From positions 1 to 40,871 of the forward strand of contig JAISXS010000058.1 in assembly GCA_031270385.1 (NCBI GenBank): a DNA stretch of 40,871 bases, read 5' to 3'. The notes beneath the pieces are model-generated. The model made no database searches. It had not been told where the DNA came from and saw nothing but the letters and a program-made list of their open reading frames with translations. Below, piece after piece: positions 2-40,739 of the stretch (position 1 is its first letter; every line of letters begins with the position of its first letter). This DNA is from Puniceicoccales bacterium. GTDB lineage: Bacteria > Verrucomicrobiota > Verrucomicrobiia > Opitutales > JAIRKQ01. The translations under genes were made by a program, and so were the position numbers.

Positions 2-148
2 GATACCGATATCGTAAACGCATTAGGGGTCAGTGGCGTTGAGAACGACAGTACAGTCATGGACATGATAGTGGTCGCATTGACGAATCCAGACGTAATC
101 GCTCTCAAATATGCCGGCAGCCATTATTATGCTATGCAGCCTCTATGA
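2..148 (+). CDS. C-terminal fragment (5' end outside the window) of a paralog of the 685..1872 Cys/His protease-like protein
   Basis: Frame is open from the window edge to TGA 146-148. Tail NPDVIALKYAGSHYYAMQPL aligns with SPHAIALMNIGNHFHALQ at the end of the 685..1872 product. Confidence 0.5.
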   Translation, partial: DTDIVNALGVSGVENDSTVMDMIVVALTNPDVIALKYAGSHYYAMQPL

Positions 149-240
149 GTTTAGAGAAGGGCATTTAATTCTTTATAGAAACGGGAATTTTCCGTCAAAT
201 ATCATTGGGCAGAGTGCCTTTCTTGGGTAGGATGATTATA
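144..240. mobile_element. MITE, degenerate chimera (B-type left end, A-type right end)
   Basis: TATGAGTTTAGAGAAGGGCAT...TGCCTTTCTTGGGTAGGATGATTATA. The left end overlaps the stop codon of the upstream ORF. Confidence 0.6.
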
Positions 241-343
241 GTTGTCTCACCTGAAAAAAGCATTCTGTCTAATGACATTCGTTGGCAGGGTTCACGTTTC
301 TCGGAAAACGGGGAACATGCTTTTCTCGGGTAAGATGACTATA
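237..343 (+). mobile_element. MITE family A, subfamily A2
   Basis: TATAGTTGTCTCACCTGAAAAAAGCA...TGCTTTTCTCGGGTAAGATGACTATA with core GGCAGGGTTCACGTTTC. Shares TATA with the preceding copy. Confidence 0.85.
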
Positions 344-360
344 AAGACGCAAAAACATTT

Positions 361-462
361 TATGGTTGTTTTATTTGAGAATGGTATGCTGCTTCTTTAC
401 AAAAATAAAAAAATTTTTCCCACGCCAAATATCATTTGACTAAGACGTTTTCATCAAGAGGA
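361..462. repeat. Degenerate MITE remnant
   Basis: TATGGTTGTTTTATTTGAGAATGGTATGC resembles a B-type end. The right end is eroded. Confidence 0.4.
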
Positions 463-511
463 ATTGCCAGAATCGGTCCATACCTGGGGGTATTTTAGGT
501 TTTGCGGCCGT

Positions 512-556
512 GACGACATTCGGCACAATCCAGGATGGATTGTGTCGTTGTTTTTT
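512..556 (+). terminator. Rho-independent terminator-like hairpin
   Basis: CACAATCC-AGGAT-GGATTGTG (8-bp stem), extended by GACGA/TCGTT, followed by GTTTTTT. Confidence 0.4.
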
Positions 557-684
557 CCGCGAGGACATAAAATCCTCCCCATCGTGGTTGGGAAGGGAAC
601 CACGGTTATCTACGACGAAAGAACACATACCTCCAAAAAAGATCATCAAAACAAAATTTTGCTATTGACGTCAACAGCACAAAA

Positions 685-1872
685 GTGAATATCAGCGCGA
701 TGATAAATCTTGAAAAGCTTAGGAACAATACGAAAAGGGTTGCAGAAGTGCCGAGCCACAACCCTCACACTAATACAGGCAGCGGAACAAACGCACATCA
801 TACGGACGTTCGGACAGACGTACATCGCGTGATCAGCGACGGTCGTGTAGGCGTGCAATACGCGAGGACCAGCGTCCGGACGGATGTGCATCACACGAGC
901 GGCAGCGTGGTTGTACATCGCACAATCAACGGAGGTGGGATGGACGCGCAACGCACAGACGCCGGTAATCGAACGCACGAAGTGCACATCGATTACAAGT
1001 TGGCAGGTGAGTTGGTTAATCAAGCGCTTGATGTAGGTGATGAGCGATTTATCATTGATATCATCGCGGGAATATCCGCTGCAAAGAATGGGACAAAACC
1101 CTGGTCGCCAGACTTATGCCATTCCGGGCTAGAGCTTAAGTCTAGGACCCCAAACATTTCGGATGAAATCATCCGGGACTTCGAGCCATTTCGTAGATCG
1201 GTGTCTATGAGCGGTCGTGGGAACAACTGTGGGTACTACGCTATAGAGTCACAAATTTCGAAACAATTTAGTGGTAATGTACTTTCTTCCGAAGGAGGAA
1301 AGTCAGATCTTGATCGTGCTGATCCGTGTGTCGAAGACCTAAGGATATCGACCTTTGATGGGTTACTCAATATGCTCACTACGAACGGAACTGATTCTGA
1401 GAGCGCTAATGAGATTTTGGCTTCCGCTTTCGGGAATGGCGCGAATCCGTATTCTATGGGTGGAATGCTACAAGTTGAGGCAACACGACAGCTGGCCGAT
1501 AAGCTTTTGCGTCCAATTGTCACAATTCAGCGGGTCAATGATGGAGACAACAATCCAAGGGGGATGATCTATGTTAGTTTGCCGCGAATTAACATTGCCA
1601 TAGATGGGAATCCCGTGGTGGGTGGTTTCATTGTTCTAGAGAACGACGGTGCCCTACAAAAGCGAGTGTCTGATTTTTTTGAGTCGCTAAGTGTGTTCCA
1701 AAGCTTTGCAGAAGTTCTACAAAACATCGATATCAATATCCAAATTGACCAGAACACGACCGCTAAGGAGCTTGTGACGATGTTGATGTTATCCCCGCAT
1801 GCGATTGCGCTCATGAATATAGGAAATCACTTTCACGCTCTACAACACACTGAACAAGTTTTTTTGAATTAA
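685..1872 (+). CDS. Hypothetical protein; candidate CA-clan (OTU/USP-like) cysteine protease or deubiquitinase effector
   Basis: Longest ORF (GTG 685, first ATG 700). GRGNNCGYYAI (Cys-box-like) lies upstream of C-terminal NIGNHFHALQ (His-box-like). The N-terminal ~100 aa are H/R/T/D-rich with degenerate repeats (TDVRTDVHRVISDG, VRTDVHH..VVHRTINGG). No signal peptide. Motif-level call only. Confidence 0.55.
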   Translation: MNISAMINLEKLRNNTKRVAEVPSHNPHTNTGSGTNAHHTDVRTDVHRVISDGRVGVQYARTSVRTDVHHTSGSVVVHRTINGGGMDAQRTDAGNRTHEVHIDYKLAGELVNQALDVGDERFIIDIIAGISAAKNGTKPWSPDLCHSGLELKSRTPNISDEIIRDFEPFRRSVSMSGRGNNCGYYAIESQISKQFSGNVLSSEGGKSDLDRADPCVEDLRISTFDGLLNMLTTNGTDSESANEILASAFGNGANPYSMGGMLQVEATRQLADKLLRPIVTIQRVNDGDNNPRGMIYVSLPRINIAIDGNPVVGGFIVLENDGALQKRVSDFFESLSVFQSFAEVLQNIDINIQIDQNTTAKELVTMLMLSPHAIALMNIGNHFHALQHTEQVFLN

Positions 1873-39150: not shown

Positions 39151-39153
39151 CCC

Positions 39154-39789
39154 TTATTCGAGAAACTCCCTTAGCCCATCGTGTGTCGGCCTCATCGCCC
39201 GTTTCCCAGCGTTCCAATTCGCCGGGCAAACTTCTCCGAATTTCTCGAAGTGTTGAAGGGCATCAACCATGCGCAATGCCTCATCAACGCTGCGTCCCAA
39301 GGACATATTGTTGATCACACAATGCTGGACAATGCCGTCCTTGTCTATCAAAAATAATCCGCGTAGAGCGACAAGTTCCCCTATGACCTCTGTTTCGCCG
39401 TTCGTCAACCTATATTCGCCGGCACATACTCCGTAGCTATCGATGATACTCCGGTTTATGTCAGAAACCAACGGAAACGTCACACCCTTTATTCCACCGC
39501 GCTCCCTCGGAGTTTCGAGCCATGCGAAATGTGAAAACTCCGAATCCCTGGAACAACCGATGAGCGCAACATCCCTTTCTTCAAAATCATGCAATCTTTC
39601 CTGAAACGCCCAAATCTCCGTTGGGCAAACGAATGTAAAATTTTTGGGATAAAAAAACAAAACCACGTACTTTTTGCCTCGGAACTGCGACAGCGAAAAA
39701 TTTTTAACAATTTCGCAACCATTGATAACCGCAGCTGCCGAGAAGTCTGGGGCCTCGCGCCCGACCAGCGTTCTGACATCAACACTCAC
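39154..39789 (-). CDS. Typical 2-Cys peroxiredoxin (AhpC/Tsa type)
   Basis: FFYPKNFTFVCPTEI (peroxidatic Cys) and EVCPANW (resolving Cys). Lies 3 nt upstream of the cofE-like gene. Confidence 0.95.
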   Translation of the reverse strand: MSVDVRTLVGREAPDFSAAAVINGCEIVKNFSLSQFRGKKYVVLFFYPKNFTFVCPTEIWAFQERLHDFEERDVALIGCSRDSEFSHFAWLETPRERGGIKGVTFPLVSDINRSIIDSYGVCAGEYRLTNGETEVIGELVALRGLFLIDKDGIVQHCVINNMSLGRSVDEALRMVDALQHFEKFGEVCPANWNAGKRAMRPTHDGLREFLE

Positions 39790-39907
39790 GGCGGCCTTGT
39801 ACCAGTTCCTAATTCGACAGTAAAGCTAAAAATTCTAAAAAAATTCTTTACTCGCGTAATGTATTTTTAATCGTAGCCAATGATTAATAACAGAAATCGC
39901 TAGGAAT

Positions 39908-40009
39908 ATGGGAAATTTAAAAAAAAAGCGTCGCTTGAAAATGAATAAACACAAGCGCAGTAAGAGATCGAGAGCTAATAGGCATAAGAAAAGACTCTGG
40001 GGTAACTAG
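39908..40009 (+). CDS. 33-aa Arg/Lys-rich protein, bS22-like (AURKAIP1/COX24-domain type) ribosomal protein candidate
   Basis: [33 protein letters not shown], with AGGA 4 nt upstream of the ATG. Too short for the ORF track. Resembles the KRRxKMxKHKxxK pattern of bS22. Confidence 0.5.
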
Positions 40010-40069
40010 GTTCTATTGGGACGCAGGTGCTATTGAAATGATCGTATGTTTTTTGCTTGACATCGGAAA

Positions 40070-40522
40070 TTGCGTTTACAAGGTCTGGGGCCTATGGTAG
40101 ATATTTTTGTGTTGTTCGGTGGCTTTGCTGCCGAAACGGTTAATGCGGCGGCCGCGGATTCTACCGCTGGTGTCGGGGTGGTTGTTTCTGGTGCCCGGGG
40201 TATCATGTCCGCGCTTCGGAGGTCTTGTGCTTCGTCATTTAAGCATGTTGCGAATCTTGCGAGTAGAACCGTCGTTTTACCGATGGCTTGGAACGCGAGC
40301 AAAAAGGCGCTCGAGTTCGTTAGTTGCCATGCGATGGGCATTATTGCGATTGTGCAGCTGACTAGGGTAGCGGTCGATATCGTAGATTGTGTTTGTGATT
40401 GGCGTCGGAAGAAAGCCAACAGAGCGGCAGCGGCAATCACGAATAATGTTCAGACTCAACGCAATAACGCGGCGGGCGATCAATCGGAGACAGCTATCGC
40501 GGCAGATGACGGAAACAGCTGA
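40070..40522 (+). CDS. Hypothetical Ala/Val/Gly-rich protein, possibly membrane-associated
   Basis: The + frame has G-rich first codon positions (GCG GCC GAT GCT GGT GTC...). The overlapping minus ORF is A/T/S/P-rich as expected for an antisense shadow. Likely ATG is 40094. Confidence 0.4.
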   Translation: MRLQGLGPMVDIFVLFGGFAAETVNAAAADSTAGVGVVVSGARGIMSALRRSCASSFKHVANLASRTVVLPMAWNASKKALEFVSCHAMGIIAIVQLTRVAVDIVDCVCDWRRKKANRAAAAITNNVQTQRNNAAGDQSETAIAADDGNS

Positions 40523-40633
40523 TAGGCACGGTATTTGTTGTGGCACGCGGTTGCCAAATTTGACAGGGGTGTGTTATTGTTATCCGACGACACCCGGCGA
40601 GGGGCTTTTTTACGGAAATGTGTCTTTTTCAAT

Positions 40634-40739
40634 TATAGTCATCTTTCCCGAGAAAAGCACATTCCCTAATTCCAAAAAACGGGAATTTTGCCGCTAGACA
40701 TCGTCAAATAGAATGCTTTTCTCGGGGAAGATGACTATA
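40634..40739 (-). mobile_element. MITE family A-type sequence (reverse), or the left end of the adjacent IS630-like element
   Basis: TATAGTCATCTTTCCCGAGAAAAGCACATTCCC...GAATGCTTTTCTCGGGGAAGATGACTATA. The last 9 nt are ATGACTATA, which begins the transposase frame. Confidence 0.88.

Follow-up and report, generated by a model that had tools for sequence, protein, structure and literature searches.

Results

A repeat between housekeeping genes

The window, i.e., the whole 40,871-bp stretch analysed (contig JAISXS010000058.1, assembly GCA_031270385.1), represents a segment of a bacterial chromosome with housekeeping functions and carries atpBEFH, dapA, secA, mnmA, ileS, lspA, clpP, glf, two tRNAs, and other genes. 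The spaces between these genes are filled with copies of a ~105-bp repeat. A preliminary description, made from the sequence by eye, had read this repeat as a miniature inverted-repeat transposable element (MITE). The present study examines the structure of the repeat, the traces of its movement, and its relation to an insertion sequence (IS) of the IS630 family.

An nhmmer profile was seeded with eight full copies and iterated twice on the window, giving a model of 105 positions. A copy was considered full when it covered at least 95 of the 105 positions, and overlapping plus and minus matches were merged into single loci. This search detected 59 non-overlapping MITE loci (best E = 3e-24), 39 near-full-length and 20 fragments, distributed along the entire 41-kb contig (Table 1). 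Together they amount to 5,151 bp (12.6% of the window) and correspond to ~1,440 loci per Mb on this one contig. The counts made by eye (~38 full copies, ~17 fragments, ~5 kb) match well with these values, and each example coordinate given at that time is a real copy of the type assigned to it. In a mechanical repeat search, the right end was found 27 times, the left end 26 times, and the full 107-nt unit 11 times. After masking of the MITE copies, self-BLAST of the window returned no further repeat family.

The MITEs make up 45% of the intergenic DNA of the window, and 97% of the MITE DNA is intergenic; just 145 of the 5,151 bp overlap open reading frames (ORFs), always at gene 3′ ends. The ORFs inside the MITE arrays match no protein family, and an 898-amino-acid (aa) synthetic query assembled from ORFs crossing the arrays has no match among 5.8 billion proteins, so the elements appear to be without coding capacity of their own; with ~105 bp they are also smaller than the ~300 bp set as the upper size of bacterial MITEs. 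The gene-free rafts of copies noticed earlier are real, except that the raft at 26480-28199 contains an unassigned ORF of 183 aa.

Architecture and subfamilies

All copies share one layout of 105 bp: TA/TAG, a terminal inverted repeat (TIR) of ~27 bp, an asymmetric core, the second TIR, and CTA/TA. Read from left to right, the common architecture is TA/TAG-TYRTCTTACYYGAGAAAAGCAT, TCTATCTAACGATATTTAG, CGGAAAGATTTCCG, TTTTTT, GGAATAGGGGGT, and ATGCTTTTCTCGGGTAAGATGA-CTA/TA. The ends read TATAGTYRTCTT...GAGAAAAGCA, with the TIR consensus TATAGTYRTCTTACYYGAGAAAAGCA. Since the arm registers differ among subfamilies, the RNAalifold consensus was uninformative and an explicit pair count was used instead. 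The arms form a 26-pair helix, in which 85.8% of cells are standard pairs; sliding the partner by 1-3 columns lowers this share to 41-51%. Eight of the TIR pairs are altered on both sides between subfamilies. Within the core, a small hairpin precedes a T-run. Conservation is highest at the termini, in the GAGAAAAGCAT block, and in an internal ACGA motif present on one side only.

In pairwise comparison, copies of one subfamily have a mean identity of 0.70-0.80 and copies of different subfamilies one of 0.53-0.70; individual copies differ mutually by 12-47%. The preliminary description had proposed three families. The types A (with A2), B, and C are indeed distinguishable by their arms and cores, but as they align over one architecture, they are better regarded as subfamilies of one superfamily. 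The A2 core is present at 237, 26834, and 32205 as had been described. Arm typing likewise recovered the chimeric copies with arms of differing type (154-240, 32651-32754, and 35641-35734). The left and right ends co-vary in A/A2, B, and C, which suggests several related master copies or IS variants as ancestors. One A-type copy (26621-26732) bears an 11-G homopolymer inside its right TIR (CTCGGGGGGGGGGGAAGATAAC) that looks like a slippage-prone tract.

Target duplication and nested insertions

A TA dinucleotide lies outside TAG or CTA at 74 of the 89 complete ends (83%), the background frequency of TA being 5.1%, and 24 of the 33 copies complete at both ends have TA on both sides. Three elements are each interrupted by another full copy; removal of the inner copy together with one TA restores a full-length match in every case. 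Element X (5401-5607) reaches 69.9 bits upon restoration, compared with 44.0 and 14.9 for its halves, and its restored centre, TTTTTTATAAAG, is the exact centre of other B-type copies. Restored X3 (38185-38391) scores 62.8 bits over model positions 1-105, and restored X2 (27821-28016) 56.3 bits. Abutting copies meet either with a TA in common, at the junction CTATATAG, or at CTATAG. The latter junction corresponds to insertion into the terminal TA of the neighbour, and the expected TA-TA-TAG is present at the far end where this could be tested (6058 and 26733). Taken together, the TA flanks, the junctions, and the nested restorations define the mobile unit as TAG...CTA with duplication of a TA target.

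A probable IS630-family partner

The last 141 nt of the contig form an open frame, MTIYNGFEKSVLKYESTHTVKEASETFGVSVRAIFEWKKKLRETGNL, whose ATG lies inside the right TIR of the best-preserved MITE copy, 40634-40739. This frame matches Pfam HTH_28 (7e-5) and HTH_Tnp_IS630 (2e-3), and its top NCBIfam match is transpos_IS630. The transposase gene proper begins at the TA of codon 4, directly after the MITE end, and carries a 1-nt deletion, i.e., a frameshift, in an A-run, as judged from its translation against two further fragments, P0122 and P0124. Family searches revealed no other transposase in the window.

Four more transposase fragments (P0121-P0124), 89-96% identical to the window frame, were found, three by protein search and the fourth by cluster look-up. 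Their accession numbers (MDR1595562.1, MDR1595563.1, MDR1595734.1, and MDR1595362.1) neighbour that of the IleS protein of the window, and we therefore assign them to the same metagenome-assembled genome (MAG). MDR1595562.1 has a TTG start and begins MKKSVLKY.... P0124 (MAYYTTDLKKSVLKY...) scores 26.1 bits against HTH_Tnp_IS630, the Pfam gathering score being 21.3. An intact transposase N-terminus (MAYYTTDLKK...) exists on other contigs of this MAG; all the transposase genes seen in it are fragments or are cut by contig ends. A search with P0123 against 1.84 billion representative proteins retrieved full-length relatives of 280-295 aa, scoring 108-197 bits where the NCBIfam transpos_IS630 cut-off is 100.

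IS DNA was obtained from three close transposase relatives, one from a JGI metagenome (L090) and two (L091 and L092) from the MAG GCA_031258795.1, whose AspRS shares 70% identity with the AspRS of a Puniceicoccales relative. In L090 and L092, the MITE profile matches exactly at the 3′ end of degraded transposase genes. The L092 match (996-1036; ...ATTCAATATGCTTTTCTAAAGTGAGATGACTA/TA; E 2.9e-5) is identical to a window TIR at 25 of 30 positions, and the L090 match (795-822) reads TGTGCCTTTGCCAAGTGAAACGACTA/TA (E 2e-4). Arm scores were 20 for the L092 end, 13 for the L090 end, and 16 for a further L090 end, compared with a maximum of 13 among 1,500 background 30-mers. By alignment, the subterminal sequence ...ATTCAATATGCTTTTCT... 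of the right part of X2 (27964-28016) also matches the IS right end in L092.

The transposase fragment of the window aligns with the L091 IS from TACAACGG onward, which places the MITE 40634-40739 in the TA of transposase codon 4. The DNA upstream of this MITE is not IS, implying a later rearrangement. The 105-bp module had also been considered as the left end of the IS itself; this was not supported, because the homology with the L091 IS begins only at the TA after the MITE.

Further observations were made on the related IS copies. L090 has its own GC-rich direct repeat (1-117 and 1428-1510). A right end of the MITE type (...AACGACTATA; L090 118-149) terminates one copy of this repeat and abuts a 5′-truncated IS630 gene; the end of the window is arranged in the same way, which hints that sister genomes contain related composite elements. 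At L092 1-1000, the IS630 transposase gene of GCA_031258795.1 contains several internal tandem duplications of its own 3′ part (PPYSPDLNPIEK...) and is a heavily scrambled pseudogene.

Distribution beyond the window

When applied to 82 loci (1.28 Mb) of related and unrelated bacteria, the MITE profile gave no match (best E = 0.24), and it detected no copy in the four closest related genomes reached. The element was likewise absent from the 89 loci (L001-L089) retrieved through SecA, IleS, and a metagenome scan. Two tRNAs are the sole matches passing the Rfam gathering thresholds in the whole window. Plasmid collections returned nothing meaningful for the family, and viral contigs gave 0 matches to the MITE pattern. 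The scan pattern GCTTTTYTYNRGNAAGAYRACTATA has 18 matches within the window itself; in metagenome contigs, it gave 5 single one-arm matches, the chance level for a 41-bit pattern. The motif HIP1 occurs once in the window, as expected by chance, and thus gives no support to a cyanobacterial origin. A literature search found the TIR strings in no relevant paper and no account of Verrucomicrobiota MITEs. The earlier remark that the repeats do not belong to a described family is consistent with these results: the family has no match in Rfam, plasmids, viral contigs, metagenome contigs, or the literature searched, even though its kind is already known.

Gene ends, neighbouring genes, and the host

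The stop codons and the last 5-20 codons of dapA, atpH, a GT2 glycosyltransferase gene, and the ORF 26875-27426 lie within MITEs, which cover these gene ends at 4381-4398, 2011-2058, 32095-32111, and 26875-26936, respectively. The native C-termini have thus been replaced by insertions. The terminal TAG of the element is an immediate stop in one frame. With the exception of cesT-ileS, all spacers longer than ~250 bp hold MITE copies. Coding density is ~74% in the window, as against 86-95% in four related loci, and the MITEs explain about half of this drop relative to the sister genomes.

The source MAG is a Puniceicoccales bacterium; its IleS, MDR1595750.1, shows 100% identity to the IleS of the window. 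By IleS, the next relatives stand at 75% identity, and SecA is at most 64% identical among the GTDB species representatives. Both SecA and IleS place the contig in Puniceicoccales, and the gene order ileS-dksA-lspA-ABC is common to its relatives. The window also carries a CesT-family type III secretion chaperone gene (17824-18318, -) and a 566-aa ORF (33262-34962, +) with a eukaryote-type Mob1/phocein domain (Pfam E 2.4e-12). The closest relatives have a type III secretion cluster (YscJ, YscK, SctL, ATPase, and YscO) at L081 18621-22814 and L089 16337-20541. Judging from these genes, the CesT chaperone, the Mob1-like protein, and the secretion genes of the relatives, a host-associated lifestyle is likely, and they suggest that this lineage of Puniceicoccales is associated with eukaryotes and may possess an effector that mimics Mob1.

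A 395-aa ORF (685-1872, +), with a MITE on either side, has a His/Thr/Arg-rich N-terminal region; it matches no Pfam or NCBIfam family, and its exact sequence is absent from the protein collection. Two short genes below the 100-aa ORF cut-off were called by eye from their translations: an 81-aa 4Fe-4S ferredoxin-like ORF (6376-6621, +), whose stop lies a few nucleotides from a MITE, and the ATP synthase c subunit (3030-3269, -).

Table 1. MITE loci of the window and the transposase gene at its end (coordinates in bp of the window; bit scores and model positions from the 105-position nhmmer profile)
Feature	Position	Strand	Score and remarks
MITE chimera (B-like + A-like ends), partial	154-240	-	47.4 bits, model 1-89
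MITE A2, full	237-343	+	72.0 bits, model 1-105
MITE, degenerate	361-465	-	25.7 bits, model 7-105
MITE A, full	1884-1988	-	74.4 bits
MITE fragment; gives atpH last codons and stop	1987-2058	+	36.2 bits, model 34-105; overlaps ORF 2011-2469
MITE, degenerate A-like; holds dapA stop codon	4296-4398	+	52.0 bits; dapA 4381-5262
Left part of B-type MITE X, split by 5465-5570 copy	5401-5466	+	44.0 bits, model 1-66
MITE A, full, nested in X	5465-5570	+	75.8 bits
Right part of MITE X	5574-5607	-	14.9 bits alone
MITE fragment	5605-5677	-	19.1 bits, model 29-105
MITE B, full; left flank TA-TA-TAG	6058-6160	+	51.6 bits
MITE A, full	6157-6261	+	74.8 bits
MITE A, full	6626-6729	+	80.6 bits, E 3e-24
MITE C, full	8642-8747	+	72.0 bits; RNA fold z = -7.2
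MITE B, full	15135-15240	+	73.3 bits
MITE A, full; TA in common with 15135-15240 copy, junction CTATATAG	15239-15344	-	71.2 bits
MITE B, full, degenerate ends	15412-15513	+	49.2 bits
MITE, degenerate A-like	15515-15615	-	49.8 bits
MITE B, full	15872-15975	-	58.8 bits
MITE A, full	16364-16469	+	73.5 bits
MITE B, full	16506-16605	+	56.8 bits
MITE fragment	16604-16685	+	30.0 bits, model 12-94
MITE B, full	16686-16788	+	57.4 bits
MITE B, one end truncated	26525-26621	-	47.2 bits, model 8-105
MITE A, full, 11-G run in right TIR	26621-26732	+	69.4 bits
MITE B, full	26733-26837	-	65.5 bits
MITE A2, full; overlaps 3′ end of ORF 26875-27426	26834-26936	+	60.1 bits
MITE fragment (weakest match)	27437-27495	-	14.5 bits, E 1e-3
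MITE fragment	27660-27719	-	21.9 bits
MITE, A-like arms and own core	27718-27822	+	63.0 bits
Left part of MITE X2, split by 27866-27963 copy	27821-27864	+	28.6 bits
MITE A-like, nested in X2	27866-27963	+	52.9 bits
Right part of MITE X2	27964-28016	+	21.6 bits for 27986-28016
MITE A, full	28013-28114	-	70.5 bits
MITE A, full, between divergent genes HIT and glf	28751-28855	+	66.1 bits
MITE C-like; holds GT2 gene stop codon	32095-32197	-	59.0 bits; ORF 31023-32111
MITE A2, full	32205-32310	+	61.4 bits
MITE fragment	32309-32380	-	34.3 bits
MITE B, one end truncated	32377-32471	-	43.8 bits
MITE fragment	32481-32551	+	27.1 bits
MITE chimera (A-type arm + B core and arm)	32651-32754	-	64.1 bits; arm typing
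MITE A with internal deletion	32757-32849	+	60.2 bits
MITE fragment	32867-32913	+	17.2 bits
MITE A, full	35056-35158	-	72.1 bits
MITE C, one end truncated	35160-35257	-	48.2 bits
MITE B, full	35257-35360	+	65.4 bits
MITE fragment	35366-35435	+	24.2 bits
MITE fragment	35433-35472	-	19.0 bits
MITE C-like, full	35537-35641	+	59.2 bits
MITE chimera (B arm + A/C-like arm)	35641-35734	-	51.7 bits; arm typing
MITE fragment	37845-37914	-	30.8 bits
MITE C, one end truncated	37916-38011	-	52.4 bits
MITE fragment	38014-38079	+	24.0 bits
MITE C, full	38081-38186	-	67.5 bits
One half of MITE X3, split by 38248-38352 copy	38185-38249	-	25.9 bits
MITE B, full, nested in X3	38248-38352	+	66.7 bits
Other half of MITE X3	38350-38391	-	23.9 bits
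MITE fragment (solo end)	38391-38424	-	19.4 bits
MITE A, full, most symmetrical; end abuts transposase fragment	40634-40739	-	78.8 bits; arms 25/28 identical
IS630-family transposase gene, 5′ part, cut by contig end	40738-40871	+	HTH (helix-turn-helix) family matches; 89-96% identity to P0121-P0124

Discussion

Proposed origin and spread

The elements are very likely ~105-bp non-coding, TA-duplicating MITEs derived from an IS630/Tc1-mariner-type element, each consisting of two ~27-bp TIRs and a subterminal sequence of ~50 bp. The original reading as MITEs is borne out by the TIRs, the TA flanks, the three restorable nested insertions, the intergenic location, the lack of a coding role, and the IS630-family lineage whose ends match in related genomes. 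As all structural hallmarks of IS630/Tc1-mariner elements are present, mobilization in trans of IS deletion derivatives is the most likely account of the family.

Transposases of the IS630/Tc1-mariner family, such as that of ISY100, bind the TIRs through N-terminal helix-turn-helix domains and act by cut-and-paste, inserting the element almost only at TA, which is duplicated (PMC2170065). By analogy, an IS630-family transposase supplied by full-length IS copies elsewhere in the genome would act in trans and bind both TIRs; it would excise the element at TAG...CTA and paste it into a TA, duplicating the latter. The partner IS would be expected to begin with TA/TAGTYRTCTT...GAGAAAAGCA ~70 nt upstream of ATGGCNTAYTAYACAACG and to end with ...ATGCTTTTCT...AGATGACTA/TA after the stop codon. 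Insertions within genes would presumably be removed by selection. With TA targets available in the TATA ends and T-rich cores of the elements themselves, the copies may pile up between genes, adjacent to and nested in one another. The copies are 70-80% identical and the visible transposase genes are broken or truncated; therefore, most copies in the window are probably fossils, left by one burst or several in the past of a host-associated bacterium.

Some of our observations weigh against this account. The TA duplication is read within one contig. The IS ends that match the TIRs belong to related genomes and not to the MAG itself, and the transposases of these genomes show ~73-82% identity in short stretches. 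In L091, the candidate left end, which lies ~70 nt before the start codon, gives a weak match (score 10, p about 0.03). The stretch directly following the last MITE was rejected as the left TIR of the IS, as 13% of random 30-mers starting with TA reach its score. A rearrangement is implied by the junction of MITE and transposase at the contig end. Furthermore, the transposase fragments are nearly identical to one another, whereas the MITE copies are only 70-80% identical, which is unlike one simple recent burst shared by both.

Alternative explanations

Whether the MITEs are now retained for a function in the cell deserves consideration, as strand-specific RNA hairpins (terminators, mRNA stabilizers, or RNase targets) or portable promoters have been proposed for the Correia, ERIC, and REP repeats. 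Single copies fold much better than shuffled sequences (z -4.3 to -7.2), and owing to G-U pairs the folding differs between strands, A-type copies reaching ~-35 to -46 kcal/mol on one strand compared with -20 to -26 on the other, with the B-type reversed. The small hairpin and T-run of the core, together with an ACGA motif as conserved as the TIRs, could also speak for a function, as could the many copies lying 0-50 nt from stop codons. However, of 26 copies in co-directional intervals, 15 fold more stably on the sense strand (Wilcoxon p = 0.78), and 10 of the 26 are oriented with the sense strand (p = 0.33); neither is a bias. Terminator-like sites are not enriched over shuffles (27 versus 24.6 and 25 versus 21.5). 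The strand asymmetry could be inherited from the founder copies, the transitions (four in A, five in B) being not significant, and the nested, truncated, and chimeric copies look like junk.

At least nine copies carry a promoter-like TTGAGA-17-GATATT in the left arm, and the terminus TATAGT could be used as a -10 hexamer. This motif faces inward, though, and the simplest reading is that it is left over from the promoter of the transposase, located in the IS left end. With neither a strand or orientation bias nor terminator enrichment, there is no evidence of co-option, and we consider a present cellular role of the MITEs unlikely.

Some further features of the arms and the promoter-like motif were recorded. 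The inward motif (TTGAGA or TTGACA, 17 nt, GATATT) is conserved in many copies, lies at model positions ~15-46, e.g., at 5479-5507, 16378-16406, and 32769-32797, and spans the strongly conserved ACGA. The terminal TATAGT is often predicted as a -10-like hexamer opposite a -35 encoded by the flank. Mismatches between the arms are mostly transitions, and the strand that keeps G-U pairs folds 10-20 kcal/mol better, e.g., in copies 5465-5570 and 38248-38352. Relative to the common core, A and B favour opposite strands, an asymmetry probably inherited from founder copies.

Movement by a transposase of another family with short A/T-rich duplications, such as an IS5-group or IS30-like enzyme, would make bystanders of the IS630 fragments. 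The fragment at the contig end, parted from its own 5′ end by a MITE, could then be a mere target, and this possibility gains from the matching IS ends being those of related genomes. Nevertheless, exactly TA is duplicated, as is the hallmark of IS630/Tc1-mariner; repeats matching the MITE TIRs (p < 1e-3) terminate the IS630-lineage genes of L090 and L092; and no non-IS630 transposase turned up in the window. We regard this explanation as quite improbable.

BIMEs and REPINs are palindromic intergenic repeats of high copy number that occur in clustered arrays, and the window MITEs recall them in copy number, intergenic placement, palindromic shape, and clustering. Spread as REP/REPIN-like palindromes by a RAYT (Y1) transposase, or as PATE-type IS200/IS605 derivatives, is nonetheless barely credible, given a unit of ~105 bp with 27-bp TIRs rather than the 20-40-bp palindromes of REP/REPIN, which lack target duplication, the TA duplication with nested insertions of the cut-and-paste type, the ends common to IS630 copies (L090 and L092), and a window with no Y1 transposase. 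An artefact of assembly or binning, in the form of a chimeric contig or collapsed repeats, might be suspected in a fragmented MAG with a contig ending in a repeat, but it is extremely unlikely as the copies differ by 12-47%, and so are not collapsed or mis-joined reads, and lie between intact housekeeping genes, while SecA, IleS, and the gene order all agree with Puniceicoccales.

Comparison with known elements

The closest parallel to the IS630-related MITEs of the window is RUP of Streptococcus pneumoniae, a 107-bp element with a TA target and IS630-Spn1-like ends, which inserts in transposase genes and is present in 108 highly conserved copies (PMC2229807). The two are of nearly equal size, non-coding, and intergenic, and insert at TA. 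The ends of RUP resemble those of an IS630-family IS in its own genome, the ends of the window MITEs those of IS630 copies in related genomes; both are also found inside transposase genes, one copy here interrupting an IS630 transposase gene. They differ in host phylum and presumably in sequence; searches of plasmid and phage/viral collections yielded no relatives of the window family. RUP counts 108 copies in the ~2-Mb genome of S. pneumoniae, while the window has 59 loci in 41 kb, with copies 70-80% identical. The contiguous TIR pairing is listed as 9 bp for RUP, in contrast to ~26 pairs here.

The Correia (NEMIS) elements of Neisseria, with a length of 104-155 bp, TIRs of 24-26 bp, TA duplication, several size or sequence subtypes, and long RNA hairpins, are similar as well (PMC2229807). 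The strand and orientation tests made here lend no support to functional features of the kind attributed to Correia elements (an IHF site, promoters, and RNase III cleavage). Including the TA, the terminal pentamer of Correia, TATAG...CTATA, is the same as in the window MITEs; beyond TATAG, the Neisseria consensus TATAGYGGATTAACAAAAATCAGGAC... is, by eye, unrelated to TATAGTYRTCTTACYYGAGAAAAGCA, and the host here is a Verrucomicrobiota bacterium. According to PMC2229807, RUP had been the only bacterial repeat element whose TIRs could be linked to an IS. Unlike the Correia elements, the window MITEs have an IS630 lineage whose ends match in related genomes.

With IS630/ISY100 elements, the window elements share the inferred cut-and-paste movement and the insertion at and duplication of TA, and the transposase fragments of the window belong to the same family, with its N-terminal helix-turn-helix. 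Apart from the truncated gene 40738-40871, however, they lack a transposase and would depend on a full-length IS.

A 2024 census of 183,232 genomes reported a maximum of 123.4 conserved MITEs per Mb, or 1.23% of the genome, and the highest densities in endosymbionts, namely Wolbachia and Rickettsia (PMC11602168). The likeness to such host-restricted bacteria lies in the reduced coding density and the many MITEs. The ~1,440 loci per Mb and 12.6% observed here exceed the census maximum, although the detection methods differ and one contig is considered here.

Significance

IS630-derived MITEs are of a textbook kind, and no new mechanism is implied by the present family. What is extreme is the local density, about ten times the census maximum, with the reservation that it comes from one contig and from a differing detection method. 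If the contig is typical, it is quite possible, although we would not go so far as to expect it, that this bacterium is the most MITE-laden prokaryote on record, with more than 1,000 copies per Mb making up ~10% of its DNA, through a lineage-specific burst absent from the relatives with 75% identical IleS, and that the MITEs helped to disable their parent IS through insertion into its transposase gene. In practical terms, MITE arrays break assemblies, yield spurious ORFs, and alter gene 3′ ends, and the nhmmer profile can be used for their annotation. A lineage-specific burst in a bacterium that looks host-associated fits with weak selection in small symbiont populations letting selfish DNA run. 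If true, this lineage would offer a natural model of an explosion of non-autonomous transposons that a small genome of a host-associated bacterium both tolerates and is reshaped by.

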